64,000 bases of DNA from a virus (IMGVR_UViG_3300036868_000046:14783-78782); one strand, 5' to 3'. Positions 975 through 61,127 are shown, counted from the first letter of the stretch. Numbers and translations are program-made. The notes: generated by a model not told the origin, from the sequence alone.

Positions 975-1086
975 GTCTCAGGCGTTCGCCTGAGCGTGTC
1001 CCCATTGGTCGGTTCGTGGGTCTCAGACCGATGTCTGAGCGCTTCACCCTCGTGGGTCTCAGGCAGACACCTGAGCATTTCCTGAC
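975..1086 (-). repeat. Cluster 1 of CRISPR-repeat-like hairpins (3 units)
   Basis: gtctcaggc-gttc-gcctgagc (975), gtctcagac-cgat-gtctgagc (1020), gtctcagg-cagaca-cctgagc-atttcctgac (1056); intergenic. Confidence 0.85.
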
Positions 1087-1122
1087 TGTGGACATGTCCG
1101 CGCATGATAGTTTCATGTGGAC

Positions 1123-1518
1123 ATGGCGTTCACAGGCACCCCCGTCATCCAGCAGCTGAACGATCGCACGGTGCGCATCACCGGCGTGTCCCTCGCGCTC
1201 TCCACCGCCGGGACCATCGGCCTGACGGGGGCGACGGGCACACCGCCCGACATCACCCTCCCTGCCAACTTCCGCGCGGCCGTGTACAGCTACAACGGCT
1301 CCTCGGTGCCGCTGCAGGCGAGCATCCAGTGCTGGGTCGAGCCGGTGACGATCGCCGGGGTCACCAACCTCCCGCCATCCGTCGGCAAGACTGGGACCGC
1401 CGTGACGGACTTCCGCATCACCATCACGAACACCAACACCGGGCTCGCAACGCAGGACCTCGAGATCCTCGTCATCTCCCACATGCCCTACGTCGGCGCG
1501 CCCGCGCAGATCGCCTGA
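1123..1518 (+). CDS. Small beta-rich virion protein; paralog of 4337..4693
   Basis: MAFTGTPVIQQLNDRTVRITGV...PDITLPA...KTGT...DFRITITN aligns by eye with 4337..4693. Confidence 0.75.
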   Translation: MAFTGTPVIQQLNDRTVRITGVSLALSTAGTIGLTGATGTPPDITLPANFRAAVYSYNGSSVPLQASIQCWVEPVTIAGVTNLPPSVGKTGTAVTDFRITITNTNTGLATQDLEILVISHMPYVGAPAQIA

Positions 1519-1526
1519 GGTCCACC

Positions 1527-2162
1527 ATGTCATCGGACAAGCTGTTCGTCATCCTCGACTTCACCGGGGTCGTCATCGGCGGCACGCAGACGCTGAGCCA
1601 CGGGCTCAAGATCAACGGCCAGCCACTGGCGCCGGACATGGTGTGGCTCCAGTACCCCGACCTCTTCGAGGTCACCGCGGCGACGACCACGAGCATCACC
1701 GTTCACAACGTGAGCGCGAGCGGCGGCGCCACGCTGGCGCTGTGCCAGGTCATCCATCCGATCATGCGCTCGTTCGGTTCGCCGCCTGATGACGGCTCGC
1801 TGATACAGCACATGACGCCCCAGCCGTTCGTAGTCGGCTCGCCGAACGCGACGCCGACTCCGACCCCGACGGGACTGACCGTGACGGCGGTGCAGACAGC
1901 AAACGTCGTCCTGACCTCGAGCTCGAACGTCGTCCGGGTGAACCCGACCGGCGGGGCTTTCAGCGTCACGCTGCCGGCTGCCTCCACGGTCGGTGGCCAG
2001 TCGACCATCGTCAAGAACGTCTCGTCCTCGGGCAACCTCATCACCGTGCTGCCTGGAGGGGGCGACACCATCGACGGTCTGGCACAGGCAACCCTCTCCG
2101 GGGATCACTTCAAGTGGTGGGTCATCAGCGATGGGGCCTCCGGCTGGATGATTGTCGGCTGA
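1527..2162 (+). CDS. Beta-rich fibre/receptor-binding-like protein
   Basis: C-terminal module TLPAA...IVKNV...ITV...GDTIDG...VISDG..W typical of phage fibre tips; Thr/Val/Gly rich. Confidence 0.7.
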   Translation: MSSDKLFVILDFTGVVIGGTQTLSHGLKINGQPLAPDMVWLQYPDLFEVTAATTTSITVHNVSASGGATLALCQVIHPIMRSFGSPPDDGSLIQHMTPQPFVVGSPNATPTPTPTGLTVTAVQTANVVLTSSSNVVRVNPTGGAFSVTLPAASTVGGQSTIVKNVSSSGNLITVLPGGGDTIDGLAQATLSGDHFKWWVISDGASGWMIVG

Positions 2163-2183
2163 CGCATGACGACAGAGACAGGG

Positions 2184-3092
2184 GTCTCAAGGCGATTCCC
2201 TGAGCTTCCTTGCCGTTGGTGCAGGTGTCTCAAGGCATGGAGCCCTGAGCGTTTCTTGCGACGACAGTCTCGGGTCGGGTCTCAAGCACGTCTCAAGGCA
2301 TGGAGCCTTGAGCATTTCTTGCTACCGGATCGCACCTTCGCCGCGCGCGTCCTCGGGTGGCAGGTCTCAAGGCGTTTGAGCCCTGAGCATCCCTTGCGGT
2401 GACGAGCTCGCGGTAGATGAGCCTCCAAGTCTCAAGGCGAGGGCCCTGAGCATCCCTTGTGACAAGTACGGCCTCGCGTGCCTGGTCTCAAGGCGCGGTG
2501 CCCTGAGCATCTCTTGCGACGTCAACGGTAGAGCGCGCATGCTGCACGTCTCAAGGCATGGAGACTTGAGCATTTCTTTGCGACGACAGCCACCGACGCG
2601 TCTCAAGGCATGGAGCCTTGAGCATTTCTTGCTACCGGATCGCACGGAGTTCCCGTCTCAAGACGGGAGCCTTGAGCACTTCCAGAGGGTCCATGGCTGC
2701 AGGTCTCAAGGCGAGGGCCCTGAGCATCCCTTGTGACAAGGACGGCCTCGCGTGCCTACCGACGGAAAGCGTCTCAGGGCGAGAGCTCTGAGCATCCCGT
2801 ATCCCGGGGCTGTCAGTCTCAAGGCGAGGGCCCTGAGCATCCCTTTCCCTGCCCACACATCGCCCGTCGGGTCTCAAAAGACACGGAGCCTTGAGCATCC
2901 CTTGTTGCGTCATTGCTGGGTCTCAGGGCGTCGGCCCTGAGCATCCCTTTGCAACCCACATCACCGCCGGTGCCGATCTCGCGTCTGGAATTCGATCCGT
3001 CCGATCTGCGTCTCAAGGCATGGAGCCTTGAGCGTTTCCAGCGCGTGCTCGAATCTCAAGGTGATGAGCCCTTGAGCATCCTCCTTTGCGAC
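2184..3092 (-). CRISPR. Degenerate, leader-distal part of the CRISPR array (about 16 variant repeats, short irregular spacers)
   Basis: Variant repeats start at about 2184, 2227, 2290, 2364, 2429, 2485, 2548, 2600, 2655, 2703, 2771, 2816, 2871, 2920, 3010 and 3053; all keep the (G/A)TCTCA...TGAGC hairpin. Confidence 0.8.
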
Positions 3093-3154
3093 CGGACCGC
3101 GCGGTAGTCGTCGACGACGGCGCCCCGTTCGACGCTCTCGGTATCTGGATTGGG

Positions 3155-3688
3155 GTCTCAAGGCATGGCGCCTTGAGCATCCCTTGCGACACTTCCGGAC
3201 CGTGTCTCGACATTACGGGAGTTGGAGTCTCAAGGCATGGAGCCTTGAGCATCCCTTGCGACATCTCATGGGCGCCGCCGCCGACAACCACCAACGAGTC
3301 TCAAGGCATGGAGCCTTGAGCATCCCTTGCGACATGTCGGCGGCGACGGCGTATCCGTCGCGCTGCATCTCGTCTCAAGGCATGGAGCCTTGAGCATCCC
3401 TTGCGACCCGTGCCTCGTTGTTGCGCCAGAGCAGCGCTTGTTCGTCTCAAGGCATGGAGCCTTGAGCATCCCTTGCGACATCTCATGGGCGCCGACAACC
3501 ACCAACGAGTCTCAAGGCATGGAGCCTTGAGCATCCCTTGCGACGTCCCCGACCGCGTATCCCGACCGGATGAACCCCTGTCTCAAGGCATGGAGCCTTG
3601 AGCATCCCTTGCGACACAATGTCCGCGCCGCGTGCATCGCCTGCAACCTGGAGTCTCAAGGCATGGAGCCTTGAGCATCCCTTGCGAC
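3155..3688 (-). CRISPR. Canonical CRISPR array, 8 repeats and 7 spacers; repeat (minus strand) GTCGCAAGGGATGCTCAAGGCTCCATGCCTTGAGAC; no cas genes in window
   Basis: 36-bp repeats at 3155 (1 mismatch), 3227, 3298, 3372, 3444, 3509, 3580 and 3653; spacers of 36, 35, 38, 36, 29, 35 and 37 nt. The GTYGCAAGGGAT start and TTGAGAC end resemble type III repeats as recalled from Thermus. Confidence 0.95.
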
Positions 3689-3850
3689 CCTTCGTTCCAA
3701 CTATTCAGTTATCACCAGGACTTGGATACCTGGTTTCGAGCGGTGGGATCTTCCACGCGAAGTGAGTCACGCTCGTTATTGAGCGTGACGAGAATCCCCA
3801 ACGTCTCCAGACAGTTGATACACGCGAGCGGCCTCCTTGGCAAGCGCGTC
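3689..3850 (-). promoter_or_regulatory. Putative CRISPR leader
   Basis: Locally AT-richer non-coding stretch next to the best-conserved repeat; contains inverted repeat gtcacgctc-gttatt-gagcgtgac (3766-3789). Confidence 0.65.
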
Positions 3851-3892
3851 ACCTCTCCGCTCGCGTGATGGTCATCTACCTGGAACTTTCGC

Positions 3893-3920
3893 TTGACAGG
3901 CGATCTCGGATCGCTAGGGT
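3893..3920 (+). promoter_or_regulatory. Sigma70-like promoter with internal palindrome
   Basis: TTGACA-N16-TAGGGT, with gcgatc-tcg-gatcgc inverted repeat at 3900-3914. Confidence 0.5.
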
Positions 3921-3939
3921 GACAACGAGGTGCTTCGAG

Positions 3940-4296
3940 ATGCTGACCACAGAACGACTCCATGCGCTCCGGAGGCGCGCGTCCTCGGTCTACGATGATG
4001 AGACCATGCAGCGCTCAAGAAGCGCTGCCCGAGCGCTTCTCCCAGCGATTCACGCACTTGCGCGATCCAAGGGGCAGACGGCGATGCACGCGATCGCCGC
4101 CGAGCTGGTAGGGGTCGATCCGTCCCTCTGGGACCGGCACGGCTCGCTGGGACGGCTGGCGGCGCGCCTGGCCATCAGCGCGGGGGTCGAGCACGTCCGG
4201 GGAGCGCTGGCGTTCTGGGCGACGGAGCATGATCCCCAGGTGTGGCGGATGATGCTGACCTCGGCCGAGCGACTTCCGGCTGGCTGGACTACGTGA
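3940..4296 (+). CDS. Hypothetical helical protein
   Basis: ATG with upstream GAGG, downstream of the promoter; ORF track 3865..4296. Confidence 0.55.
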   Translation: MLTTERLHALRRRASSVYDDETMQRSRSAARALLPAIHALARSKGQTAMHAIAAELVGVDPSLWDRHGSLGRLAARLAISAGVEHVRGALAFWATEHDPQVWRMMLTSAERLPAGWTT

Positions 4297-4336
4297 GACT
4301 TCCCTTACCTGGGATGGTTCGGGTATCTTCCGGGAC

Positions 4337-4693
4337 ATGGCATTCAACGGAACCGCAGTGCTTCACCAGGTCTCGGATCGAGAGGTCCGCATCACCGGCG
4401 TGCTTCTGACGACCGGGGCGTCCGGGACGATCGCCCTGACGGGCCATACCGGGACGACGCCCGACATCACGCTGCCGGCGGCGTTCAAGCCGGCGCCGTA
4501 CGACTACAGCACGGCGACCGTCTCGCTGATCGACTCGATCCAGTGCACGCTGCGGTACATCGACGGAACCGGCGTGGTGACGAACTGCGTGATCGCCAAG
4601 ACGGGGACCACCAACGCGGACTTCCGCATCACGGTGACCAACCCGAGCGGCTCGTCCACCTCCGCGATGGAGATGTACGTCGAGTACCACTGA
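4337..4693 (+). CDS. Small beta-rich virion protein; paralog of 1123..1518
   Basis: MAFNGTAVLHQVSDREVRITGV...PDITLPA...KTGTTNADFRITVTN. Confidence 0.75.
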   Translation: MAFNGTAVLHQVSDREVRITGVLLTTGASGTIALTGHTGTTPDITLPAAFKPAPYDYSTATVSLIDSIQCTLRYIDGTGVVTNCVIAKTGTTNADFRITVTNPSGSSTSAMEMYVEYH

Positions 4694-4695
4694 AG

Positions 4696-5406
4696 CTACG
4701 GCTTCTCCTGGACCTGGAGACGGATTCCGGGCGTGCGGGCGACGCCGGCCAGATCCTCCCAGCCGTACGCGTGGCGACCGTAGTGGAGTAGGCGAATGGT
4801 GGTGTCGGCCATGATGGCGACCTGGCATGTCCGGGCTCGCTTCGAGAACGCGAAATCCTCGCCCAGGTAGGCCACTGGGCGGCTGCCCGGGTCAATCATG
4901 GCGATGGTGGTCGTGTCAATCATGGGCAGGAAGTACGGCCGCATGACTCGCCCGTGGTACCCGACGCAGTCTGGGATTGGGGACTCGTCATCGAGCCGAT
5001 GGAAGACCTCGGCCCGGACGAGCGTGAACCCCATGGCGGCGTACTGGATCTCGATCAGGCCGCCGCCCTCGCCGAGGGTGAGCTCGGTGGTGTCGGGCAG
5101 GAGGCGACAGGCGAGCTCCGGTACCCCCTTCTTCGTGTAGATGCCGCACACGAAGGGGAGGTTGTGGCCGAGCAACCGATCGACGTCGTCCGGCTCGAAC
5201 CCGATGTCCGCGTCGATCCACATGAGCTCGGAGAACCCGTCGGCCAGCGCCTCGGTCGCCATGAGGCACCGTATCTGATCGATGCAGGCGGATCCGCGCA
5301 GGACGCGGACCTTGTAGCCACGTCGCGACAGCTCGGCGAGGCTCCGCTCGCACTCGGGCTCGAGGGCGCCGAGCGAGGGGACCAGGATGCAGGTGGCGGC
5401 GGTCAT
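4696..5406 (-). CDS. GT-A fold glycosyltransferase-like protein
   Basis: DxD motif LMWIDADIGF, AMGFTLV, GEDFAFS and TTIRLLHYG motifs. Confidence 0.8.
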   Translation of the reverse strand: MTAATCILVPSLGALEPECERSLAELSRRGYKVRVLRGSACIDQIRCLMATEALADGFSELMWIDADIGFEPDDVDRLLGHNLPFVCGIYTKKGVPELACRLLPDTTELTLGEGGGLIEIQYAAMGFTLVRAEVFHRLDDESPIPDCVGYHGRVMRPYFLPMIDTTTIAMIDPGSRPVAYLGEDFAFSKRARTCQVAIMADTTIRLLHYGRHAYGWEDLAGVARTPGIRLQVQEKP

Positions 5407-5597
5407 TCCGGCCCCGGGATCGGCATGATGGCGTACCACTCCGAGGTCCACAGGGTCGCCTCGACCATGCATGACCTCAGTGCCTCCAGATGTCGGGCGA
5501 CGGCGGCGACAGCGGCATCGTACGTCTCGGTCACCTCGACCGGACGCTGGAGCTGTCTGGTAGCATCGCACTTCATGACGACGAACTTGATGCTCAC
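5403..5597 (-). CDS. Hypothetical protein
   Basis: 4-nt start/stop overlaps with both neighbours. Confidence 0.55.
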   Translation of the reverse strand: MSIKFVVMKCDATRQLQRPVEVTETYDAAVAAVARHLEALRSCMVEATLWTSEWYAIMPIPGPE

Positions 5598-5971
5598 TTG
5601 GCCTGCCTCAGCTTCTCGTCGATCACCGCGCGATCGATGAGCCGGTCGATGGCGCCGGCGTCGTCATCTTCCTCGAGTCCATCGAGCTCGTCGTCCGCAT
5701 GGACGTCGGCCGGGCGGGTCTCGTTGGCCAGGGCGACCCGGCCGATGTTCTCGATGGGTGGCGCTTTTTTGGGGGCGACGACGCTCATCGGCTCGACGCG
5801 CGCGGTCTTGGACAGCCGGTTGCCGACCACGTACTCCTTGAGCTTGTGGGCGGCGTCCCAGGACAGGCCCTCCCCCCAGAGCTTCACCCAGTCCTTGTCG
5901 CGGACGCGGTAGAGCATCCCCTCCTGCGGCACGAGCTTGACGATCTTCTGCGGCTTGTGGTGCGGTCTCAT
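5594..5971 (-). CDS. Hypothetical protein with acidic C-terminus
   Basis: ATG preceded by TAGGCT-N7; overlaps next gene by 4 nt. Confidence 0.6.
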   Translation of the reverse strand: MRPHHKPQKIVKLVPQEGMLYRVRDKDWVKLWGEGLSWDAAHKLKEYVVGNRLSKTARVEPMSVVAPKKAPPIENIGRVALANETRPADVHADDELDGLEEDDDAGAIDRLIDRAVIDEKLRQAK

Positions 5972-6029
5972 CGCCGTGAGCCTATCACCACGTGACACGG
6001 ACCTGAACGGTTCAACGTGGGGCATCGAG

Positions 6030-6144
6030 GTCTCAGTCGTCGACTGAGCGCGTCCGGCCAAGAGTCTCAGGCTTGAGCCTGAGCGTTCTCGGGCTGGCGC
6101 CTGAAGCGGCCACATTCCTTCGTCTCAGTCTCAGGTGACTGAGC
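6030..6144 (-). repeat. Cluster 2 of CRISPR-repeat-like hairpins (3 units)
   Basis: gtctcagtc-gtc-gactgagc (6030), gtctcaggc-ttga-gcctgagc (6064), gtctcagtc-tcaggt-gactgagc (6122, overlapping the stop of 6131..6466). Confidence 0.85.
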
Positions 6145-6466
6145 TATCCGATGCGGCGGCGCCCTTCTTGAAGATGGTCTTCCAGATTGCGGCGCTCACC
6201 GGGATGAGCAGCGTCGCGGCGATCTGCAGCCACTTCTGCAGTTCGGCATGCTGGAGCGTGAGGACGCCGGCTCTGAGCTGGTTGATCACGTCCGCTTCCC
6301 ACTGCGTGTAGGGGAGCGTCGGATCGGAGAGCGTGTTCTGCCCAGGGTCGTCGGCGGCGCCGAGCGAGCCGAGGGGGCCCAGCGTACGACGCGGGATCGC
6401 CAGTCCGAAGCTCGTCGACACCCCCGAGAGCGCCCTTGGCCGTCTGTGTGCCTTGCGGTAGTACAT
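6131..6466 (-). CDS. Small virion membrane protein
   Basis: MYYRK leader, LGSLGA motif, C-terminal hydrophobic helix followed by basic residues. Confidence 0.7.
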   Translation of the reverse strand: MYYRKAHRRPRALSGVSTSFGLAIPRRTLGPLGSLGAADDPGQNTLSDPTLPYTQWEADVINQLRAGVLTLQHAELQKWLQIAATLLIPVSAAIWKTIFKKGAAASDSSVT

Positions 6467-6475
6467 GGGAGCCCT

Positions 6476-7090
6476 TCAGTTGGGGACGTTCGGCGACAGC
6501 GAGCCGTAGTCGTCATCGCCGATGATGTCCGACAGGTCGGAGAGGTCGTCGGTCGCGGATGTGGGAGGCGCTGCGGTGGGGGGACGGGGAGAGGGGGTGC
6601 TCATGCGCCCCGCGTCGTAGGCATCGTTGTAGGTGTACTCGTTGGGGTCGTCGGCCACCGGCCGCAGCGCCCGCATCTGGAGATGCGGAAGCCCGAGGTC
6701 GGCGTTCGGGTCCGCGGCCGGCAGCTGGGCGTTCGGGTCCGCGAGCATCCAGCCGAGGGACGGCACGTAGAGCTGGATGAGGTTCTGGATGGCGGCGATC
6801 GCGGCGCCGACCACGATCGGGGTGTGGTACTTCTCGAGCCACTTCCACTTGTGGGCGAGCAGCCACGCGGATAGGAACGCTCCGACGGCCGCAGCCGCGC
6901 CCGCGTGCTTGCCGATCGACGGTGCCCGTTTCGCCACCTGCTCGGTCGCGACCTTGGTGATGAACCGGGTCAGCGCGAACCCGGCGAAGCCGGGCCCGAT
7001 GAACTCGGCCAGGTCGGTCATGAGCGGGGGGTTATGTCGTGGCGCAGCCGCGGCCCTGCCGTATCTGCGCTTGAGCCTGGTTCGAGCCAT
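6476..7090 (-). CDS. Virion membrane/core protein with RHNP motif
   Basis: Basic N-terminus ending RHNP, 2-3 hydrophobic segments, acidic tail. Confidence 0.7.
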   Translation of the reverse strand: MARTRLKRRYGRAAAAPRHNPPLMTDLAEFIGPGFAGFALTRFITKVATEQVAKRAPSIGKHAGAAAAVGAFLSAWLLAHKWKWLEKYHTPIVVGAAIAAIQNLIQLYVPSLGWMLADPNAQLPAADPNADLGLPHLQMRALRPVADDPNEYTYNDAYDAGRMSTPSPRPPTAAPPTSATDDLSDLSDIIGDDDYGSLSPNVPN

Positions 7091-7136
7091 CCCCCCTATC
7101 GTACCCCCAGGACGCCAGGAGGCACAAGGTCGTCGG

Positions 7137-7483
7137 GTCTCAGCGGAGGGCCGCTGAGCAGCCCCAGGGCAGTTCCGCTTGCGGTCTCAGGCTCCATCAC
7201 GAGCTCTTGCTAGTCTCAGGCACACCTGAGCGGGTCCCTACGACGCTATGGTCTCAATCGAGGTTGAGCGTATCCGAATATCACCCGTCTCAGCACCCGT
7301 TCGTGGCCTGAGCTCGTGCATGTCTCAGGGTGCTCGGCTACGGTGTGTCTCAACCAAGCGTTGAGCAGCCACGATACCTGATGTCTCATGGTAATCACCT
7401 GAGCAGTCCCAGCCACGGATGACGACTATTACCTATTCGATTGTCACGACCGCTCCTCTCATGTCTCTGACTATGGGCAGAGC
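7137..7483 (-). repeat. Cluster 3 of CRISPR-repeat-like hairpins (about 9 units)
   Basis: Units at 7137, 7184, 7213, 7251, 7287, 7322 (half), 7347, 7383 and 7463; fixed GTCTC(A)...(T)GAGC ends with different paired inner stems. Confidence 0.85.
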
Positions 7484-22046: not shown

Positions 22047-23785
22047 GGCTCCGACCTCTTCCGCGAAGAGAGCAGGATCGCGACCGCCGCGACGGCGCCC
22101 CCTGCGATGAGTAGGGTCGTCGTCAAGGACGACGACGAGGGCGGCGGGACCGGCGCCGGCGGGCGCTGACCGCACGCCTGTTGCGCGAGCGCTGCCCCCG
22201 CCGCGCCCACCTGAGGGGGCGCGCCCGCGGCAGTCGCCGCCGCGGCCGACGCGGCCTGTCCTTGCTGACCACTCAGCGTGCTGTTCAGGACGTCGCACGC
22301 GAGGTCGGCCAGGTCCCGCACCGTGTCCACCACGGCATTGCGCACCGGCATCACCACCGTCGCCGGGATCTGGACCAGCGTGTTCCAGATCGACCCCAAG
22401 ACGCCCGGATCCGGGATCCTCGACAGCCAGACCTTCAACGCCAGCGGATTGGTCGCCGAGCCGACCTGGTACGGGTCGATCGGGTCGAGCATGACGTGCA
22501 TGACCAGGTCTTCGTTCGTCGTCGGATGCTTGGTGCGAACGAGCGGATCGATGCCGGTCAGGAGGTACCACAGGGTGTGCTGCCGGACCGGCGTGTCCAT
22601 CGTGATGCCCATCGCGTCGAACCAGTTCCCCCAGTCCGGCGACGAGCCCTTGCCCTCCTGCGCGATCATGTGCGGATACGTGGTGCCGACGTCCGTCTTC
22701 CCAGCAGCGTCGTGGGCCTCGACGAGCCGGTCGTGAAGCCATCCAAGGACGTCCGCATCGACCGGCCGCATGACGACATTCGCCGAGGTCGTCGTTGGCC
22801 GCCAGTTCGGATCGGGCGATGGATACATGAGGTCTGGGGTGCGGCCAGGGCCCGCCGAGCTCGTGGACCCACCGAACGCCCAGACCCGGTTCTGGAGCCG
22901 GTCATCGAACTGGAACGGCCCGACGTAGAACGCGCCGGTCGGGCGGTTGTCCCGCACCTCGGTCTGCGACGGGTCGACCGTCGCGGCGCCGGGTGGCGCC
23001 CCGCTCGCGCAGAACGGCACGTCCTGCGCGCCTGCCATGGTCCGGGTCCAGTGACCCGGAATTCCCGCGGAACCGTAGACCCAGGAGAACCCGGGGCTCG
23101 ATTGGCAATCCGCGGTATCTCCCAGAACTGCCATGCAGCCATAGCACCCCAGGCCCAGGAGAGATTTTGCCTGGGGTGCCGCGCGTCGCAGACCCGTGTT
23201 GATGACCTCGGCCGCAAGCCCCGTCGACATCGCGCGGCTGATCGCGAGCGGCATGGCCTGGCCGGGGTTCATGCCCTGCGCGATGTACCGCTTCCAGATG
23301 TCCTGCGTCCTCGTCCAGAGGGAGCGGTCGATCTTGTCCATGATCTGCTTGAGCGCATCCTGCCGCTTCTTGGGCGGGACGCTCTTGACCCTGGACAGGA
23401 TGATCTGCGCCGCGCGCTGGCCGTAGTCCTCGTAGGGCGCCGGCAGCTCCGCGTCGCCGAACGCCGAGAGCATCGTGATCTCCCGACCGCCGCCCGGCAT
23501 CCGCGCCGAGCGCACCACCTGCGGATGCTGGTTGAGCCAGTGCGGGATGCGCGGCCCGGCGTACGTCCCACCGGGCGCCCACTTCGTGGTGTAGGTCCCC
23601 TGGCCGTAGCCTTCGTCCATCACGTATTGCGGCACCACGTAGCCGCCCGTCCCGACGTCGGGGTCGTCGTAGGTGCCCCGGGGCACCTGCTTGGTCACGA
23701 ACGCCCGGCGCTCGAGGCCCTCCTCGTCGACGTTGCCCGGAAGGCAGTACCCTGGGTCCCAGGGCTTTGGCAGGTTGTAGGCCAT
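22043..23785 (-). CDS. Large virion membrane-anchored protein
   Basis: MAYNL leader, internal FGD/LGD motifs, C-terminal TM followed by RKR. Confidence 0.7.
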   Translation of the reverse strand: MAYNLPKPWDPGYCLPGNVDEEGLERRAFVTKQVPRGTYDDPDVGTGGYVVPQYVMDEGYGQGTYTTKWAPGGTYAGPRIPHWLNQHPQVVRSARMPGGGREITMLSAFGDAELPAPYEDYGQRAAQIILSRVKSVPPKKRQDALKQIMDKIDRSLWTRTQDIWKRYIAQGMNPGQAMPLAISRAMSTGLAAEVINTGLRRAAPQAKSLLGLGCYGCMAVLGDTADCQSSPGFSWVYGSAGIPGHWTRTMAGAQDVPFCASGAPPGAATVDPSQTEVRDNRPTGAFYVGPFQFDDRLQNRVWAFGGSTSSAGPGRTPDLMYPSPDPNWRPTTTSANVVMRPVDADVLGWLHDRLVEAHDAAGKTDVGTTYPHMIAQEGKGSSPDWGNWFDAMGITMDTPVRQHTLWYLLTGIDPLVRTKHPTTNEDLVMHVMLDPIDPYQVGSATNPLALKVWLSRIPDPGVLGSIWNTLVQIPATVVMPVRNAVVDTVRDLADLACDVLNSTLSGQQGQAASAAAATAAGAPPQVGAAGAALAQQACGQRPPAPVPPPSSSSLTTTLLIAGGAVAAVAILLSSRKRSEP

Positions 23786-27954: not shown

Positions 27955-28237
27955 CCCTCCGCCCCCCCCGGTCGTGAGGGTTCGGCGAGCGCCCGACACA
28001 CGTCGGGATCTCGCCAAGGTCTCACGGTCTCTCTGACAACCGAATAGCCCGAGACTCACGCCAGAGCAGCATTCCCCGGTGTCGCGCATGCCATGCGCGC
28101 ACCGGGCGCAGTCGAAACGCCGGACCACTCCCTTACCCGGAGCGCCGTGCTGCCGCGGACGTGGTCGTGAACGGGCAAGCAAGTTGTGACTTGCGAGAGC
28201 GGCGCGCGCCGATGCGCGCCCCTCATGGAGGTTACAA

Positions 28238-28516
28238 ATGAGAGTGCGCTTTCCGAGCATCGCCGATGTCGCGCAGAACTTGCGCGACATCAATGCCAAC
28301 GTCGAGGGGGAGTGCGACGTTCGGCTGTGCGTCTGGACAGATGGCACGTGGTGCGTGCGCTGGGGAGATGTGCAGTTCGATCCCAGCAGCGCCCCGTACT
28401 GTGGGGCCAGCGGTGTTCCCGGTGTCGTCGGCGGCAAGGTGCAGCGGTTCGACGCGCGCGCGATCGCGCGCGATCTGCTGGACCAGTGCGCAGAAATGCG
28501 CGCCCAGGACGAGTAG
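28238..28516 (+). CDS. Hypothetical early protein; its stop codon begins hammerhead 1
   Basis: GGAGG RBS; TAG at 28514-28516. Confidence 0.7.
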   Translation: MRVRFPSIADVAQNLRDINANVEGECDVRLCVWTDGTWCVRWGDVQFDPSSAPYCGASGVPGVVGGKVQRFDARAIARDLLDQCAEMRAQDE

Positions 28517-28577
28517 GCGAAACCGCGCCGAGCGCGGTCTGCAGGCCACCCCAAACCCTGCACTGACGAGCCTGGGG
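28514..28577 (+). ncRNA. Type II hammerhead ribozyme 1 (predicted cut after 28539)
   Basis: taggc-GAAAC-cgcg..cgcg-GTC-tgcagg..cctgca-CTGACGA-gcctg; loop I CCCCA pairs with tail TGGGG. Confidence 0.9.
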
Positions 28578-28588
28578 AGAACCTCGCA

Positions 28589-28943: not shown

Positions 28944-29011
28944 TAGGCGAAACCGCGCCGAGAGCGCGGTCTGCGGGGGGGCACCCCTACCCCGCACTGA
29001 TGAGCCAGGGG
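28944..29011 (+). ncRNA. Type II hammerhead ribozyme 2 (predicted cut after 28971)
   Basis: Stem I tgcgggg/ccccgca, CTGATGA, stem II ggc/gcc, pseudoknot CCCCT/AGGGG. Confidence 0.9.
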
Positions 29012-29036
29012 ACAGGCCGACACCAGGAGAATCGCA

Positions 29037-29372: not shown

Positions 29373-29441
29373 TAGGCGAAACCGCGCAGTGAGCGCGGTC
29401 TGCAGGTGATGACGCCCTACCCTGCACTGATGAGCATGGGC
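29373..29441 (+). ncRNA. Type II hammerhead ribozyme 3 (predicted cut after 29400; weak stem II)
   Basis: Intact core; stem I tgcagg/cctgca; pseudoknot GCCC/GGGC; stem II only 2 bp. Confidence 0.75.
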
Positions 29442-29458
29442 TAAAGAGGAAGTCAACG

Positions 29459-31416: not shown

Positions 31417-31632
31417 ATGCTCAAGGTCACGCAACGCATGATCAATGCCGTCGCCATCGCGACGGATGAGGCGAATCGCAAGATCGCCGCGGAACTGAAC
31501 ACATGGACCACGGGCCCCCGTGCCGGGTCCCAACAGGCCAAGGTCGGCACGCACCGCAGCGTGAAACACTATCGGCGCACGCTCGTCTCTCGTCACCCCG
31601 AGGTCACGGACGCGGCCAGGGTGAAGCTGTGA
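31417..31632 (+). CDS. Hypothetical early protein
   Basis: AGGAG RBS right after hammerhead 4. Confidence 0.65.
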   Translation: MLKVTQRMINAVAIATDEANRKIAAELNTWTTGPRAGSQQAKVGTHRSVKHYRRTLVSRHPEVTDAARVKL

Positions 31633-32066
31633 AGGTCACCACCCGTGAACAGTTCATCGCTTTGTTCGGCCGCGGGCGGCCGGAGGCGATGGAGTTCGAG
31701 AACTCCGTCATTCAGGCCATCGAGCGCGAGCATTTGCCGGACGACGCGCTTGCTGTGGTAGATGGTGGCGATGGTTCCGCGGCGTATTGGGACTGGCTCG
31801 CGAGCCAGGTCGAGCCGCAGTGCACGTGTGAATGCGGTAAATGGTCTGGGACGCGGTGCCGTTGGGGAGGACAGCGGTCCGACACGGTCATCGTGGAGTT
31901 CATGCCGGAGGCCCTCCGGGCGAGCCACGTCGCCGCTGGAAACAGCGGCACGTACCCCCACAACGGGGCGGAGCGTATCCGCGTGTCGCGCGACTGCGCG
32001 CAGTGGATGCGCGAGGAGGACCCGGAGTGGTGCTCCGAAGTTCGCCATCTGGCTCCTCGTCGATGA
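31629..32066 (+). CDS. Hypothetical Cys-containing protein
   Basis: GTGA overlap; CxC...C...C motif. Confidence 0.65.
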   Translation: MKVTTREQFIALFGRGRPEAMEFENSVIQAIEREHLPDDALAVVDGGDGSAAYWDWLASQVEPQCTCECGKWSGTRCRWGGQRSDTVIVEFMPEALRASHVAAGNSGTYPHNGAERIRVSRDCAQWMREEDPEWCSEVRHLAPRR

Positions 32067-55851: not shown

Positions 55852-56252
55852 AGCGCTCGGCTCCGCTCCGCCGCAAGACGCCGCTCCGCACGACACGCCG
55901 AACGAAGTACCGCCGGCGTGAGCGCGACGTGCCGTACATGCTGTGGGTGAAGCGGCAGCCGTGTTGCGCGCTGACCCTGGGCCGCTGTCGTGGGCCAGTC
56001 GAGGCCGACCACACCGGGCGCCGTGGACTGAGCCAGAAGGCGAGCGACGGATCGTGTATCCCGCTCTGCCGTCATCACCACCGATGCCGGGATAGCTTCT
56101 CGGGACCCTTCCGAGACTGGTCGAAGGCCGACATGCGCGCGTGGCTTGCCGCCATGCGGCATCTCATGCGTCACATCTGGGACTGCTCAGGGTCAACCTT
56201 GAGACCGCCGACGTGCGCCACGGCCTCGCTCACCAGTCGGGTGAGACCATAG
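55848..56252 (+). CDS. HNH-like nuclease (DUF968/DUF1364-type)
   Basis: WVKRQPCC...C...VEADH...GLSQKASD...IPLCRHHH. Confidence 0.75.
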   Translation: MKRSAPLRRKTPLRTTRRTKYRRRERDVPYMLWVKRQPCCALTLGRCRGPVEADHTGRRGLSQKASDGSCIPLCRHHHRCRDSFSGPFRDWSKADMRAWLAAMRHLMRHIWDCSGSTLRPPTCATASLTSRVRP

Positions 56253-56385
56253 TATCGCTCATGGACGCCATGAGACGCGTTGAGGCGGTTGGATATGCTC
56301 ATCCAGCGACGAACCGTGATGAGACGTGCGGCAACCAGAGACGCCATGGCGCCCCTTGTGGCAACGTGGCGGGATGCGATCAGGG

Positions 56386-57156
56386 ATGCTGACACCCGAA
56401 GAGATGGCTTCGATCCTCACCGAGGGCCGTACGGCCGAGCAGATCCGCGCCAGCGGCATCGGCTTTGACCGCGTGATGGAGGTCCCCAGCACGAACACGT
56501 ACCGCGACCAGTCGACGGTGCTCATCATGCCCAACCGGGTCCGCGAGTTCGACTTCCGGGTCATCTCGGCGATCTTCTCGATGATCGCGCCGATGAACCA
56601 GAAGCGGCACATGATGTACTGCATCGGCGACGAGGTGGGGGTGGCGTACAACAACCTCATCAAGGCCATCCTCGACAACCCCGACCTTGCAAAGTTCAAG
56701 TATCTGATGACGGTCGAGGCGGACAACGTCGTCCCGGCCGACGCGCACATCCGCCTCCTCGAGACGATCGAGGCCGGGCAGTGGGACGCCGTGTCGGGTC
56801 TCTACTTCACCAAGGGCGACGTGAACATGCCGATGGCCTACGGGGACCCGGCCAGGTTCGAGGCGACGGGCGAGCTCGAGTTCACGCCGCGGGACGTGAC
56901 CGAGGCCCTGACCAAGGGGATGGTCATGCCGGTCAACGGCATCGCGATGGGATGCGCCCTGTGGCGCCTGGAGATGTTCAAGGAGATCCCCGGGCCCTGG
57001 TACATCACGGTCAACGACGTGGTGGGCAGCGGGGTGATGGCATTCACGCAGGACCTGTGGTTCTGCAAGACGGCCCGCAAGGCGGGCCGGCGGTTCGCGG
57101 TCGACTGTCGCGTCCGCGTCGGTCACATGGACCTCGCGACGAAGGAGATCTACTAA
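56386..57156 (+). CDS. GT-A fold glycosyltransferase-like protein
   Basis: YLMTVEADNV (DxD-like), VSGLYFTK, AMGCALW, TQDLWFC, VRVGH. Confidence 0.8.
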   Translation: MLTPEEMASILTEGRTAEQIRASGIGFDRVMEVPSTNTYRDQSTVLIMPNRVREFDFRVISAIFSMIAPMNQKRHMMYCIGDEVGVAYNNLIKAILDNPDLAKFKYLMTVEADNVVPADAHIRLLETIEAGQWDAVSGLYFTKGDVNMPMAYGDPARFEATGELEFTPRDVTEALTKGMVMPVNGIAMGCALWRLEMFKEIPGPWYITVNDVVGSGVMAFTQDLWFCKTARKAGRRFAVDCRVRVGHMDLATKEIY

Positions 57157-58893
57157 ATGCGCATTCTGATCACCGGGGGCTGTGGCTTCCTCGGCTCCCA
57201 CCTGGTGGAGCACTTCCTGAAGACGACCAACTACGAGGTCGTCGTGCTCGACAAGCTCACCTACGCGTCGAACGGCTACGATCGTCTACGAGACGTCCGC
57301 GCGGGGCTCGTGCAGTCGAGCTCCAAGCCGCTCGAGGCGGCGAAACACTGGGAGGACCGCGTCCGGGTGTTCAACACCGACCTGTCGCAGCCGCTCCCTC
57401 CGGGGGTGGTTCAGGAGATCGGTGGGATCGACTACATCATCCATGCGGCGGCGGAGAGCCACGTCGACCGCAGCATCAAGGATCCGCTCCCGTTCCTGAT
57501 GAGCAACGTGATCGGCACCCATCATCTGCTCATGTCCAGGACCGTGGCGTACGCGCGGCGCGTATTCATCGTGTCGACCGACGAGGTCTATGGCCCGGCG
57601 TCATGGGGGGAGCAGGGGTTCGATGAGGAAGAAAGGTTCCGCCCGGCGAACCCGTACGCGGCGTCGAAGGCGGGGGCCGAGTGCCTGGCGTTCGCCTACG
57701 CCAACACGTACCGGCTTCCCATCACCATCGTGAACACGATGAACCTCATCGGCGAGCGCCAGCACCCGGAGAAGTTCGTCCCGCTGGTGATCCGCAAGGT
57801 GCTCGAGGGGGAGACCGTGCAGATCCACGCCGATCCGAGCAAGACCCGAGCGGGAACCAGGTTCTATCTCCACTGCAGGACGTTCGCGAACGCCCTCGCA
57901 TGGCTCATCACGACGGATGGTGCCTGCCCTCAGAAGCTGCACGTGTGCGGCGAGGTCGAGCTCTCGAACCTCGAGCTCGCCACCACGATCGCCGACCTCA
58001 TCGGCAAGCCACTCCAGTACGAGCTCGTGGACTTCCACTCCTCGCGTCCAGGGCATGATCTCCGGTACGCCATGAACGACGCCTACATCCAGTTGCTCGG
58101 CTGGCGACGCCCCATGGGCATCATGGATTCGCTCAAGAAGACCGTCGCATGGTACCTCGCGAATCCGCAGTGGCTCCAGCTGCAGGACACCGTCGCCGGG
58201 ATCACGATGAACGTGAAATGTCAGGCCAAGTCCGAGTGGCCGAAGGATCGAGTCATCGTAGGAGACCGAGTCAGGCTGACGAGAACCGGCCTGGCCGGTT
58301 CGGTTACTGGCGTCGATCCATCCATCGGGCTAGCGTCTGTTGCCGTCGATAACGGCCAGCTTAGTAATAACCTGATCGAAAACCTGCAGCACATCGAATC
58401 GCCAGATGACGACGATGCCGACGACTTGCTAGCAGTTGCGGACTTGATCGCCGCAGAGGGACTGCCGGGCGAGCTTCCTGCCGAGGAGGAAGGGGTGCTT
58501 GTAGCGGACGGACTTCCCTGGGTGACAGCGGCGCTCACCGACTGCCAGGTCGGGATCTTCGCGAACCCGCTCGGCGCCGACATCGAGGATTCACATCGCC
58601 GGGACGCGCAGCAGGCGCGGGATCAGGCCATCCTGGCGAAGATCGACGACCGGCTCGCCTCCTTGGAGGCGCGCGCCCGACCCAAGCCGGTCCAAGGGGC
58701 CATGGTCCGGGTGACCGATGGCTGGTTCGCGGGGGCCACCGGGAAGATCGTCGCCGTGATCCACGCGGAGGAGCCGGATGCGCGGGAAGCCTACTCAGTG
58801 GCGCTGACGGCGGTGTCCTCGCTGACACAGGCGAAGTACATGGGCATGGCGCCGCTCACCTTCGTCGCGGAGCAGTTCGAGGTCCTGTCATGA
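57157..58893 (+). CDS. rmlB: dTDP-glucose 4,6-dehydratase (RmlB-like) fused to a ~240-aa C-terminal extension
   Basis: ILITGGCGFLGSH, DKLTYA, HAAAESHVDRSI, STDEVYG, NPYAASK, RPGHDLRYA, TVAWY; reading continues past the usual end. Confidence 0.88.
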   Translation: MRILITGGCGFLGSHLVEHFLKTTNYEVVVLDKLTYASNGYDRLRDVRAGLVQSSSKPLEAAKHWEDRVRVFNTDLSQPLPPGVVQEIGGIDYIIHAAAESHVDRSIKDPLPFLMSNVIGTHHLLMSRTVAYARRVFIVSTDEVYGPASWGEQGFDEEERFRPANPYAASKAGAECLAFAYANTYRLPITIVNTMNLIGERQHPEKFVPLVIRKVLEGETVQIHADPSKTRAGTRFYLHCRTFANALAWLITTDGACPQKLHVCGEVELSNLELATTIADLIGKPLQYELVDFHSSRPGHDLRYAMNDAYIQLLGWRRPMGIMDSLKKTVAWYLANPQWLQLQDTVAGITMNVKCQAKSEWPKDRVIVGDRVRLTRTGLAGSVTGVDPSIGLASVAVDNGQLSNNLIENLQHIESPDDDDADDLLAVADLIAAEGLPGELPAEEEGVLVADGLPWVTAALTDCQVGIFANPLGADIEDSHRRDAQQARDQAILAKIDDRLASLEARARPKPVQGAMVRVTDGWFAGATGKIVAVIHAEEPDAREAYSVALTAVSSLTQAKYMGMAPLTFVAEQFEVLS

Positions 58894-59120
58894 TCGATGA
58901 CCAGCAGCGCGAGGACGAAACCGTGACTGACCATCCCGAGGCAATCATCTACCGCGGCGATTCCACCTGGCACGATGGACCCGGGTGGTACTACGTCATA
59001 AGCGATTACCCAGATGAGGGATCATGCGGGGCGTTTGCCTCGTGCGACGAGGCGATCGCTCACGCCCAGGATGCCGGCTACCTGCCCATTGTCAGCAGCC
59101 GGCAGCGGAGGGTGTCATGA
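58890..59120 (+). CDS. Hypothetical protein
   Basis: GWYY...GPF-like motif (GWYYVISDYPDEGSCGAF); coupled to neighbours. Confidence 0.55.
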   Translation: MIDDQQREDETVTDHPEAIIYRGDSTWHDGPGWYYVISDYPDEGSCGAFASCDEAIAHAQDAGYLPIVSSRQRRVS

Positions 59121-59758
59121 CCACGCCGCTCGCGAAACCGCCGGTCACCCGCAAGCTCGACCTCGCCGCCGGCCAGAGCCCCAAGGAAGGGTTCGAGGGG
59201 GTCGACCTCTGGCCGGGGAGCCAGCACGTCGTGAACCTGCAGCGGTTCCCATGGCCGTTCGAGGATGAGAGCGTGGCTGAGCTCCACTGCTCGCACTACA
59301 TCGAGCACATCCCGATGGTGTACATGGAGAACCGGGTTAACAGCGAGCACGGATCGCTCCATGGCGGCGTCGGATACAGGGACGCTCTGTTCGCGTTCTT
59401 CGACGAGTGCTACCGCATCCTCATACCGGGAGGATGGCTGACGGTGCAGTGGCCATCGCACCGCTCGGACCGGGCATTCCAGGACCCGACGCACCGTCGG
59501 TTCCCGACGCCGCAGACGATGTGCTACATGAACGAGCAGTGGCGGCGCACGAACAAGCTCGACCACTACGCCGTCGAGTGTAACTTCGGGGATGAGCGCG
59601 GCAACGCGGTGCTCGCGAGCCCCATCGTCGACCAGTCGATGCAGCTCCGACATCCCGAGGCCGCGGAGAAGCTCATCCACCAGCAGTGGAACACGACCAT
59701 CGATTGGGTGTGCCGCCTGCAGAAGCATCCGCGGCTCCCACCCTTGCCGAGCACCTGA
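59117..59758 (+). CDS. Class I SAM-dependent methyltransferase-like protein
   Basis: KLDLAAG, GVDL, FPWPFEDESV, SHYIEH, ECYRILIPGG, DPTH. Confidence 0.8.
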   Translation: MTTPLAKPPVTRKLDLAAGQSPKEGFEGVDLWPGSQHVVNLQRFPWPFEDESVAELHCSHYIEHIPMVYMENRVNSEHGSLHGGVGYRDALFAFFDECYRILIPGGWLTVQWPSHRSDRAFQDPTHRRFPTPQTMCYMNEQWRRTNKLDHYAVECNFGDERGNAVLASPIVDQSMQLRHPEAAEKLIHQQWNTTIDWVCRLQKHPRLPPLPST

Positions 59759-59777
59759 CCGACAAAGGAGAGATACC

Positions 59778-60188
59778 ATGGGAACGCGTGCGGATTTCTA
59801 TATCGGGACTGGTCCCAATGCCGTGTGGCTCGGATCGACGAGCTATGACGGCTACCCGGATGGATGGGGGAAGGGGCCGCTTGCGGCCTCCTCGGAGGAC
59901 GAATTTCGTGCCGCGGTTGAACACATGCTGACGCATGCCGAACTCGCGACGCGCCCAACGGAGGGCTGGCCGTGGCCTTGGCCTGACTCTCGTATCACCG
60001 ACTATGCATATGCATGGGATCCAACGAATGGAGCGATGGTCTCGGTATTCGGGCGGAAATATGCGAAGGACGAGGCCACCAGCTATGATGGCCGGAAGTT
60101 GCGCGATGACGAGGTGGTGGACATGCGGAAGGTCCCCAACGGGGACATCCTGGGGAAATCCGGCCTCGTGTTTTTGAAAACCTCGTAG
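59778..60188 (+). CDS. Hypothetical phage protein
   Basis: AAGGAG RBS; MGTRADFY...WLGS...DGYP...WPWPW.DSR.TDYAY. Confidence 0.75.
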   Translation: MGTRADFYIGTGPNAVWLGSTSYDGYPDGWGKGPLAASSEDEFRAAVEHMLTHAELATRPTEGWPWPWPDSRITDYAYAWDPTNGAMVSVFGRKYAKDEATSYDGRKLRDDEVVDMRKVPNGDILGKSGLVFLKTS

Positions 60189-60199
60189 AATCGACGGCC

Positions 60200-60355
60200 A
60201 TGGCTCACACCAACCACGCACCGGCCGCTCGCGGGGTCAGCCAGCTCATGTACGTGGGCGATGACCAGGCGACGGCGCCATCCAAGCTCCCCACCGCCCT
60301 GACCGTCGCCATCGTGCTCGCGATCGGCTGGTGGCTCGTGGGGCGCAGGCGATGA
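60200..60355 (+). CDS. Small virion-type membrane protein (51 aa)
   Basis: Translated by hand: MAHTNHAPAARGVSQLMYVGDDQATAPSKLPTALTVAIVLAIGWWLVGRRR; TAGAAT upstream. Confidence 0.55.
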   Translation: MAHTNHAPAARGVSQLMYVGDDQATAPSKLPTALTVAIVLAIGWWLVGRRR

Positions 60356-60798
60356 TCACCGAGATCCGCGCGCTGCGGCTGCACGAGATCCGGTCTCAGC
60401 TGGGAACGCCCGCGCACCGCTTGCCCTATCACCCCTTCCGCCTCCTCCAACCACTCGCCCAAGACCATGAGGACCTCATGCCAGACGTGACCATCCCTGT
60501 CGGAAGCTACAGCATCTGGACCATCAGCGTGACCCAGGCGAACGGCCAGCCGGACACGACCTCGCCGATCACCGTCAACGCGGCGCAGCCCGGCTTCGTG
60601 CTGCTCGATCCGGTCGTCCCGAGCGCCGGCAACCGCCAGTTCTACGTCAGCGGCATCGCGATCACCTCGAACGTCACCCTGGTGGCCACCGACCTGGCGG
60701 GGCGCCATGCGTTCGCGCAGGTCACCGTGTCGCAGGTCGACCTCAGCGGCATCGCGAGCGGCGGCTTCGGGCCGGTATTCCAGGGGCCGCATCCCTGA
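60352..60798 (+). CDS. Ig-like beta protein (start may be 60478)
   Basis: Beta-strand pattern, VTLVATD...AQVTV. Confidence 0.55.
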   Translation: MITEIRALRLHEIRSQLGTPAHRLPYHPFRLLQPLAQDHEDLMPDVTIPVGSYSIWTISVTQANGQPDTTSPITVNAAQPGFVLLDPVVPSAGNRQFYVSGIAITSNVTLVATDLAGRHAFAQVTVSQVDLSGIASGGFGPVFQGPHP

Positions 60799-60830
60799 AA
60801 TGGCGCGACGTCACACGTAGGAGATTCGAG

Positions 60831-61127
60831 ATGGAACCTGTATCCGAAGACGACCGTGAAGCCTTGCTCAAGGCAGTCGCGCTGCTCCTGCCCCTGGTGG
60901 AGCGGTACCACGGCTCGCTCCTCATCCTGAACCGACGGGCGATGATGGTCACCGTGACGACCAGCGTGATCCCGGCGGACCCGTTCTTGATCGGTGGAAC
61001 GAGCCTTCCACTTCCTCCTTCGGCCGTCGTGTATGTCCGGGATCGTGCAGCGGCCCTGCTACCGGACTGGAGCATGTCGCCGATCGATGGGACCCGCTTC
61101 TTCGCTTCCAGGAAGGACTCCCAGTGA
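60831..61127 (+). CDS. Hypothetical protein
   Basis: AGGAG RBS. Confidence 0.6.
   Translation: MEPVSEDDREALLKAVALLLPLVERYHGSLLILNRRAMMVTVTTSVIPADPFLIGGTSLPLPPSAVVYVRDRAAALLPDWSMSPIDGTRFFASRKDSQ

Follow-up and report, generated by a model that had tools for sequence, protein, structure and literature searches.

What recognises a set of short hairpins that resemble the repeat of a CRISPR array (short palindromic repeats, clustered and regularly interspaced) and lie outside that array? The question is raised by a virus in IMG/VR (IMGVR_UViG_3300036868_000046, hereafter G000). We studied it in a window of 64,000 nucleotides (nt), the whole stretch of DNA that was analysed, which covers bases 14783-78782 of the 78,782-bp record. 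The record is complete, with direct terminal repeats of 125 bp and a G+C content of ~66%. Outside the array, G000 carries ~20 minimal hairpins, strictly in the gaps between open reading frames (ORFs). The first-pass annotation proposed them as mimics of host CRISPR RNA (crRNA) that titrate Cas6 or type III effectors, or as sites at which Cas6 processes late viral mRNA. Our analysis points to a different partner, the virus-encoded effector Cas12m, and we tentatively place the action of the hairpins on the transcripts of the virus itself. The units are listed below; here and throughout, positions are those of the window unless genome coordinates are named.

975-995, 1020-1040 and 1056-1076, minus strand: cluster 1, three hairpins (z -4.6, -3.6 and -2.5) whose crRNA sense is antisense to both flanking genes
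6030-6049, 6064-6084 and 6128-6144, minus strand: cluster 2, three hairpins co-oriented with both neighbours
7137-7159, 7213-7231, 7251-7269, 7287-7313, 7347-7366, 7383-7404 and 7463-7483, minus strand: clear units of cluster 3, co-oriented with the flanking genes
~7183-7205 and ~7320-7338, minus strand: the two degenerate units of cluster 3
56099-56117, 56185-56205, 56228-56247, 56257-56276 and 56297-56325, plus strand: cluster 4, upstream of and co-oriented with a plus-strand operon
genome 10471-10489, strand opposite to the array, outside the window: a single unit, 50 nt before the ATG of cas12m

That hairpins with a common outer motif recur outside the array at clusters 1-3 had been proposed from the sequence, and the counts agree. 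The window holds 42 copies of the pattern GTCTCA-N3-30-TGAGC, where 1.4 would be expected (at most 5 in 100 dinucleotide shuffles), and the whole genome holds 44, with 0 occurrences of the reversed control pattern. A looser search, for which CTC...GAGAC was the anchor, 5 bp the minimum stem and the array masked, gave 11 hairpins with stems of at least 7 bp, where 2.5 were expected (maximum 6). The base before CTC was not searched for, and it is G in 17 of 18 G000 units and in 72 of 74 across G000 and a related virus, G001. A match at 5965 was discarded as probably due to chance; its 4-bp stem overlaps a start codon. As annotated, hairpins sit between the genes of a minus-strand operon, where clusters 2 and 3 share the orientation of the flanking genes. 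The units had also been said to share the orientation of the array without exception, however, the five units of cluster 4 and the one at genome 10471-10489, both sites overlooked in the first pass, are on the other strand.

The 18 units that were folded all adopt one and the same structure, a hairpin in which the 5′ G and the 3′ AC stay unpaired (z -1.3 to -4.7). The hairpins are 17-29 nt long with loops of 2 to 14 nt, and in G000 they form compact mini-arrays with spacers of 9-24 nt. A-U, G-C, C-G, U-A and G-U pairs are all present at stem positions 4 to 7, and the cluster-3 unit at 7463 is a CTCTG/CAGAG variant. Covariation was tested on 71 clustered units of G000 and G001, aligned with MAFFT. 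In this alignment CTC/GAG is invariant and all five inner pairs show double changes; 88.5% of the cells are paired compared with 71% in shuffles, and the covariation score is 0.40 compared with 0.13 (0/500 shuffles). Sliding the partner column by one collapses the signal. Pairs 4 and 5 had served to pick the units, which leaves pairs 6 and 7 (76% and 73% of the cells paired) and the G before CTC as independent evidence. The alignment indicates that the hairpin structure is under selection. The initial view that the units derive from the CRISPR repeat and form single-stranded hairpins with compensatory changes in their stems is supported.

The repeat from which they derive belongs to an array with an intact and a decayed part.

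2184-3688, minus strand: the whole CRISPR array, repeats and spacers
3155-3688, minus strand: canonical part of the array, with eight identical 36-nt repeats (GTCGCAAGGGATGCTCAAGGCTCCATGCCTTGAGAC) and spacers of 29-38 nt; covariance model E ~1e-10
2184-3100, minus strand: degenerate, leader-distal part of the array, with ~17 repeat variants that score 14-50 bits in the covariance model and irregular spacers of 7-54 nt
3689-3900, minus strand: putative leader, inferred from a lower-G+C stretch adjoining the intact repeats

The array is best read on the minus strand, where the repeat is GTCGCAAGGGAT-G-CTCAAGGC-TCCAT-GCCTTGAG-AC. Our reasons are that the intact repeats adjoin the low-G+C stretch at 3689-3900 with the decayed repeats at the opposite end, that in three other viral type V-M loci the array comes after cas12m on the same strand and has repeats ending in hairpin-AC, and that the 36-nt scaffold of Cas12m2 ends with a helix, a G.A pair and C(-1). 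The degenerate repeats preserve their stems through compensatory changes, and a continuum runs within one array from canonical repeats over degenerate full-length repeats to minimal units. Spacers 3263-3297 and 3480-3508 are near-duplicates that differ by a 6-nt GCC-rich indel, and repeat-spacer segments are duplicated in the degenerate part (2290/2600 and 2429/2703), so that the array grows through internal duplication. The array spacers had no match among INPHARED phages or in the related viruses G001, G002 and G006, and two spacers had none in IMG/VR. The leader contains GAATAGTT (3700-3712, minus strand), ~23 nt ahead of the first G-CTC. Inside cluster 3, GGTAATAGTC (7425-7440, minus strand) likewise lies 20-23 nt ahead of a G-CTC. 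The two may be a common -10-like element that drives both loci as small-RNA units; a sigma-70 promoter scan called none, a result that is uninformative at 66% G+C.

The effector gene lies upstream, outside the window.

genome 10539-12392, strand opposite to the array and ~4.5 kb before it: cas12m, encoding 617 amino acids (aa)

In the PDB this protein matches Cas12m (23vw_A, E 1.3e-63) and Cas12m2 (8hio, E 6.4e-10), and its full-length match in PADLOC is the Cas12u1 profile (E 1.6e-77), with residues 4-579 aligned to positions 3-530 of the 533 in the profile. Aligned with five viral Cas12m homologues, its RuvC triad reads N-D-D, with N in LALNLGY and the two D residues in LIIDDFDL and WDQDANA; Cas12m proteins are known with D-E-D, H-D-D and N-D-D triads. 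The zinc-ribbon TNB gives a weak Pfam match. Bigelyte et al. reported that N-D-D Cas12m proteins bind DNA without cutting it, and the Cas12m orthologues tested, N-D-D included, perform RNA-guided DNA binding without cleavage and process their own pre-crRNA. From these matches, we conclude that G000 encodes a type V-M system of its own, composed of Cas12m and an array of 36-nt repeats. We saw no cas1, cas2 or cas4 near cas12m, and Cas12m is the sole cas gene identified in G000, although cas6 itself was not searched for.

We compared the repeat with the Ms, Tf, Un, Mk and Mm crRNAs and with the description of the Cas12m2 structure. In the 36-nt Cas12m2 scaffold, the 3′ helix pairs -22..-17 with -8..-3 and is accompanied by a G(-23).A(-2) pair and C(-1) (PMC10442227, PMC11013384); the crRNAs of MsCas12m, TfCas12m and UnCas12m read ...G-CUCAG-loop-CUGAG-AC immediately 5′ of the guide. 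The G000 repeat has this architecture, with a hairpin at its 3′ end followed by an AC that abuts the spacer. It shares the 36-nt length, the 3′ hairpin-AC, the core and the G.A pair with the scaffolds of MmCas12m2, GoCas12m and MsCas12m (PMC10442227, PMC11013384), and, as in other type V-M effectors, the RuvC triad of G000 Cas12m is non-canonical. The outer motif of the dispersed hairpins equals the Ms/Tf/Un core G-CUCAG...CUGAG-AC letter for letter, and it is on this identity that we regard the units as stripped-down copies of stem 2 of the Cas12m scaffold, including the G.A closing pair and the terminal C. The shorter core G-CUC...GAG-AC is common to diverged Cas12m systems. In contrast to a full type V-M scaffold, the G000 units have stem 2 only, a spacing of 7-24 nt in place of ~35 nt and inner stems that differ and covary, and, unlike type V-M loci, they are spread over several operons at a distance from cas12m. 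They also lack the 5′ part of the repeat, and a search for the pseudoknotted stem 1 as complementarity between upstream sequence and loop gave no signal (3.17 compared with 3.16 in permuted controls). Rfam holds no family for the dispersed units, and the covariance model built from the array repeats gives them 9-23 bits, so that single units are weak by that measure.

These comparisons bear directly on the Cas6 proposal, which we now find hardly credible. It can draw on the general likeness of the units to a CRISPR repeat hairpin, however, the repeat hairpin ends 2 nt before the spacer and leaves no room for an 8-nt handle of the Cas6 type. The units had been said to retain most of the 3′ handle, but what they keep is stem 2 of a 5′ scaffold. 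In sequence and architecture the repeat is that of a Cas12m scaffold, and the virus itself encodes the matching effector. The exact repeat was not found next to cas genes in any host genome searched: its exact 3′ half is absent from IMG/VR outside this lineage and from one genome each of 185,579 species, a degenerate repeat pattern matched only phage-like contigs, and a Cas12m peptide-pattern scan of the species genomes gave no match. The annotated TCC 2-4 nt after the motif, which in crRNA sense is a GGA upstream, is found at 12 of 18 G000 units, but at only 4 of 56 in G001 and with no complementarity to the loop.

The genomes compared were G001, G002, G004, G005 and G006, and G001 was found with the degenerate repeat pattern and a Cas12m search. 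G001 (IMG/VR, 86,334 bp, complete) is syntenic with G000 at 65-75% nucleotide identity over many genes, encodes a Cas12m that is 45% identical and holds ~57 dispersed units. It has 78 CTC...GAGAC hairpins where 21 were expected; with stems of at least 6 bp, the observed and expected numbers are 48 and 7.9. Most read G-CTCGG...CCGAG-AC, with loops of mostly 2-5 nt, and match the canonical repeat stem of another viral V-M array (L031). They form clusters of 3 to ~18 that fill gaps between called genes. Seven units extend across the 264-nt leader directly before the cas12m start codon, the place at which G000 has its single unit. The site of cluster 3 is syntenic with G001 23063-23209, before a 204/215-aa gene, and a second shared site surrounds a 133-aa and a 211-aa gene, where G001 has nine minimal units and G000 has the array. 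The complete G006 genome (75,613 bp) shares 37/91 genes with G000 and has no Cas12m; there the motif shows no excess over its control (24 against 16); the corresponding counts are 63 (control 20) in G000 and 89 (control 27) in G001. Given the ~60 units of G001 and their absence from the Cas12m-less relative, the hairpins most likely serve the Cas12m of G000 itself rather than act as decoys for a host Cas6.

Both general ideas of the first-pass annotation, decoys and mRNA processing, stay in play, and a decoy need not be aimed at Cas6. The hairpins could be RNA sponges that soak up the Cas12m of a rival virus, a plasmid or the host that would otherwise silence G000. Viral solitary repeat units (SRUs) that sequester Cas proteins, known as RNA anti-CRISPRs (Racrs), are established (PMC10651486), and like the G000 units they are repeat-like hairpins outside arrays with no evident targets. 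Numerous copies without guides, carried on abundant transcripts, would be well suited to such sequestration, and with a core common to diverged Cas12m proteins cross-binding is plausible. However, such a sponge would also disable the Cas12m of G000 and its working-looking array, and G006, which would need decoys equally, has none. No host V-M system with the G000 repeat was found in the species-genome scans. Racrs mimic a host repeat, have their own promoter and are unlinked to cas genes, whereas the G000 units match the array and effector of their own genome. The dispersed units are tandem clusters of 3-18 inside operons, not solitary units behind dedicated promoters and terminators; cas12m is in the same genome, and the Cas12m-less relative lacks them. 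We rate this explanation as very unlikely.

The hairpins might also be relics of old, decaying arrays, or Cas-independent stabilisers or terminators that spread by recombination and merely share ancestry with the repeat. Minimal units lie at the leader-distal, oldest end of the array in both viruses, units fold on either strand, and arrays change by hairpin-to-hairpin recombination. Near-identical G001 strains (L023:8300-8640 compared with L016, L019 and L020) differ only by the presence or absence of one 32-nt spacer with a full repeat and by a deletion that fuses two hairpins into one, which is ordinary array dynamics. In every strain the -10-like element TGTATCAATACTGTG stands before the first unit of this mini-array. 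Bacterial repetitive extragenic palindromic (REP) sequences and bacterial interspersed mosaic elements (BIMEs) are likewise palindromes, short and imperfect, that combine a conserved base with a variable stem and cluster between operon genes. The G000 units differ from them in that their anchors are those of the Cas12m scaffold, that they are tied to the presence of cas12m and that no RAYT (REP-associated tyrosine transposase) is encoded: the Y1 transposase family PF01797 is absent from G000, G001 and G002, while control genomes scored positive. As intrinsic terminators the hairpins fail for want of a T tract after them; only two degenerate repeats score as terminator-like, and only on the plus strand. 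Compensatory stem change and near-invariant, asymmetric G...AC flanks are not expected under neutral decay. Moreover, the units are oriented non-randomly relative to genes, persist at syntenic sites across ~30% nucleotide divergence and are missing from the Cas12m-less relative. A relic or Cas-independent origin therefore appears quite unlikely. A second G001 strain differs at 5/21,881 positions, too few for testing selection, and no identical G000 Cas12m is on record.

If Cas12m does read the hairpins, does it use the sequence between them? Each hairpin with its next 14-24 nt could be a guide cassette, yielding a short crRNA that steers Cas12m to silence host or rival genes as part of a streamlined, hard-wired array. 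About half of the G000 inter-unit spacers are 15-24 nt long, near the 17-bp heteroduplex of Cas12m2. In G001 six identical units (GCTCGGCGCTGCCGAGAC) are each followed by a different sequence, as in a repeat-spacer array. The continuum from canonical to minimal units fits as well, as does the fact that Cas12m acts by binding alone. However, many spacers measure 2-13 nt (those of G001 range over 2-46 nt, with a mode of 14-15 nt), and some recur, with ACATTCCCGTCA present twice and ATGCACGA common to G000 and G001. Spacers this short and repetitive are unsuited as adaptive guides, and the units are without scaffold stem 1. The inter-unit tags had no targets in the four related genomes searched, and the unit flanks match elsewhere in the G000 genome no more than random 18-mers do. 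With 11-nt seeds of the flanks there were 10 matches against ~2 expected, all of them array-internal, the self-match to cas12m described below or GC-rich short repeats. We consider guide cassettes unlikely.

The single G000 unit and the seven G001 units ahead of cas12m recall CreR, crRNA-like RNA (crlRNA) and the SRUs before cas12a, which are also repeat-like units directly upstream of a type V effector gene (10.1101/2023.03.03.530964, 10.1101/2023.03.10.532045, 10.1101/2024.10.29.618823). As with CreR and crlRNA, a guide against the effector gene exists in G000, here as an array spacer: 3545-3579 (minus strand) is identical at 35/35 positions to genome 11461-11495 (L009), inside the cas12m ORF, and the guide has the coding-strand sequence of the gene. 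The 5′ flank of this protospacer is CACCGAGG; on the side of the protospacer-adjacent motif (PAM) it reads GAGG, whereas the known PAMs of Cas12m are rich in T or C. The spacer may serve autoregulation, may be a weapon against rivals with the same allele or may be a harmless match without a PAM. CreR and crlRNA have a spacer-like part that is partly complementary to the cas promoter, next to a PAM. The leader units, by contrast, do not seed on the cas12m promoter: neither G000 nor G001 has a seed of at least 7 nt within 1 kb of the cas12m start. Most units, moreover, lie far from cas12m. Autorepression at the DNA level by the leader units is therefore not supported. In term searches of the SRU/Racr, cas12a-SRU and CreR/Cracr papers, none was seen to deal with type V-M, or with minimal, covarying hairpins that cluster within operons.

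How the units are oriented relative to the genes they separate depends on the following neighbours.

ends at 963, plus strand: gene for a beta-helix protein, flanking cluster 1
1117-1518, plus strand: 133-aa gene, its strand confirmed by the codon phase of substitutions relative to G001
4337-4693, plus strand: 118-aa gene, a paralogue of the 133-aa gene
start at 5971, minus strand: 125-aa gene, bordering cluster 2
stop at 6131-6133, minus strand: 111-aa gene, bordering cluster 2 on the other side
start at 7090, minus strand: 204-aa gene, bordering cluster 3
stop at 7541, minus strand: 843-aa fibre-like gene, bordering cluster 3 on the other side
56326-62260, plus strand: operon behind cluster 4, with a 276-aa protein, an epimerase/dehydratase and a glycosyltransferase

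The stop codon of the 111-aa gene falls within the last hairpin of cluster 2. For the unit in the cas12m leader, for clusters 2, 3 and 4 and for seven G001 clusters (~47 units), the crRNA sense is the coding strand of the neighbours. Units on the strand of their flanking genes, as most are, would be part of viral mRNAs. The reading we favour, to which we give a little less than an even chance, is that the hairpins are cis-acting sites at which Cas12m binds or processes viral transcripts. It draws together the identity with the scaffold core, the selection on the hairpin, the mostly sense, intergenic positions, the presence in the cas12m leader of two viruses and the absence where there is no Cas12m. 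Cas12m would bind the hairpins on the transcripts and, in the manner of pre-crRNA processing, would probably cut just upstream of them. The cas12m leader units would then feed back on Cas12m synthesis, and clusters between other genes could punctuate or process the message, stabilise it or titrate the protein.

Punctuation of transcripts is already in use elsewhere in G000, as suggested by two type II hammerhead ribozymes on the plus strand, at 28945-29014 (44.8 bits) and 29374-29446 (40.5 bits). Both exceed the Rfam gathering score and sit in the intergenic part of a plus-strand operon, which G000 thus seems to punctuate with self-cleaving RNAs. Taken further, Cas12m could have turned into a regulator of viral RNA, one that recognises from ~20 (G000) to ~60 (G001) hairpins in polycistronic transcripts, its own leader included, and cuts or coats them, setting the processing, stability or translation of the neighbouring genes. 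We consider this extension rather unlikely. If true, it would be a protein-dependent counterpart of the hammerheads.

Several observations weigh against a role on transcripts. The whole 361-nt cluster 3 folds no better than shuffles (z -0.64), so that the evidence lies in the local hairpins, the conserved anchors and the covariation and not in bulk folding energy. Relative to the 133-aa and 211-aa genes, cluster 1, the array and two of the G001 clusters (12 units) run antisense, a poor fit to simple mRNA punctuation; the strand of the 211-aa gene was likewise confirmed by codon phase, and the antisense exception is conserved between G000 and G001. A minus-strand pre-crRNA running through these two genes would account for it. 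In three further viruses, Cas12m comes with no more than arrays or a mini-array beside its gene, and hence the dispersed layout is not required by Cas12m. Of these, G004 and G005 have canonical arrays only, and G002 (Cas12m 36% identical) has a mini-array only beside cas12m, with another scaffold motif, CCCG-stem-CGGG-AC, whose inner stems covary. The co-occurrence of hairpins and cas12m is based on four related genomes, of which two have both, one has neither and one has a different scaffold, and minimal units that lack stem 1 may have low affinity for Cas12m.

Pfam and PHROGs yielded no function for the genes next to the clusters. The 133-aa and 118-aa paralogues that flank the array both begin MAF.GT and belong to no Pfam or PHROG family; their G001 homologues (28195-28584 and 31459-31839) are also bordered by hairpin clusters. 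The operon behind cluster 4 encodes the 276-aa protein (a glycosyltransferase-like PHROG), a 578-aa NAD-dependent epimerase/dehydratase with a C-terminal extension and a group 1 glycosyltransferase, which look like accessory genes that modify cell-surface sugars.

Other repeated elements were noted in the related genomes. The palindrome CTTGCCACTGGCAAG (core TTGCCA-N3-TGGCAA) occurs ~13 times in G002 (L033-L037; e.g. 76640-76660), ~11 times in G006 and not in G000; in this virus lineage it probably serves as an operator or promoter motif. G002 also has five GTAG-CCAGCG-loop-CGCTGG-AC hairpins (1892, 12728, 77109, 80880 and 81246) with an identical stem and differing loops. In combining GTAG with a palindrome they resemble REP elements, and they have no relation to the Cas12m scaffold of G002. 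Short phage-like contigs, among them a 3.1-kb soil contig (L021, positions 21-747) as well as L011 and L013/L017, hold regular 11-unit arrays of a related repeat, CTCGCAAGAGATGCTCAGAGCCGCTGGCTCTGAGAC, with a period of ~73. These arrays adjoin genes for a GH25 lysin and a phosphatase-like protein, in L017 also for an integrase, with no cas gene on the contigs.

The V-M locus of myxophage MV-1 was presented in a 2026 preprint as the first phage Cas12m (bioRxiv 10.64898/2026.09.14.751636). MV-1 resembles G000 in being a complete phage with a Cas12m of ~610 aa, about eight spacers and no adaptation genes; in the passages of that preprint found by term search, it has a D-E-D triad and an adjacent array, no protospacer matches are reported and dispersed hairpins are not described. 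G000 differs in its N-D-D triad, in an array that lies 4.5 kb away on the opposite strand, in a spacer that matches cas12m and in the scattered hairpins.

CRISPR systems of viruses are usually seen as weapons against rivals, and viral repeat-like units as decoys. Here, an effector that presumably binds DNA without cutting it travels with dozens of minimal copies of its own RNA handle. The continuum from canonical repeats to minimal units bears on how arrays decay, or originate, without Cas1-Cas2. If Cas12m acts on the units, they would define the minimal RNA determinant that it recognises as a G, a 3-bp CTC/GAG base, any stem and AC, which would be useful for compact Cas12m tools. G000 and G001 would then also offer an example from nature of mRNAs acted on in cis by a Cas12 protein.

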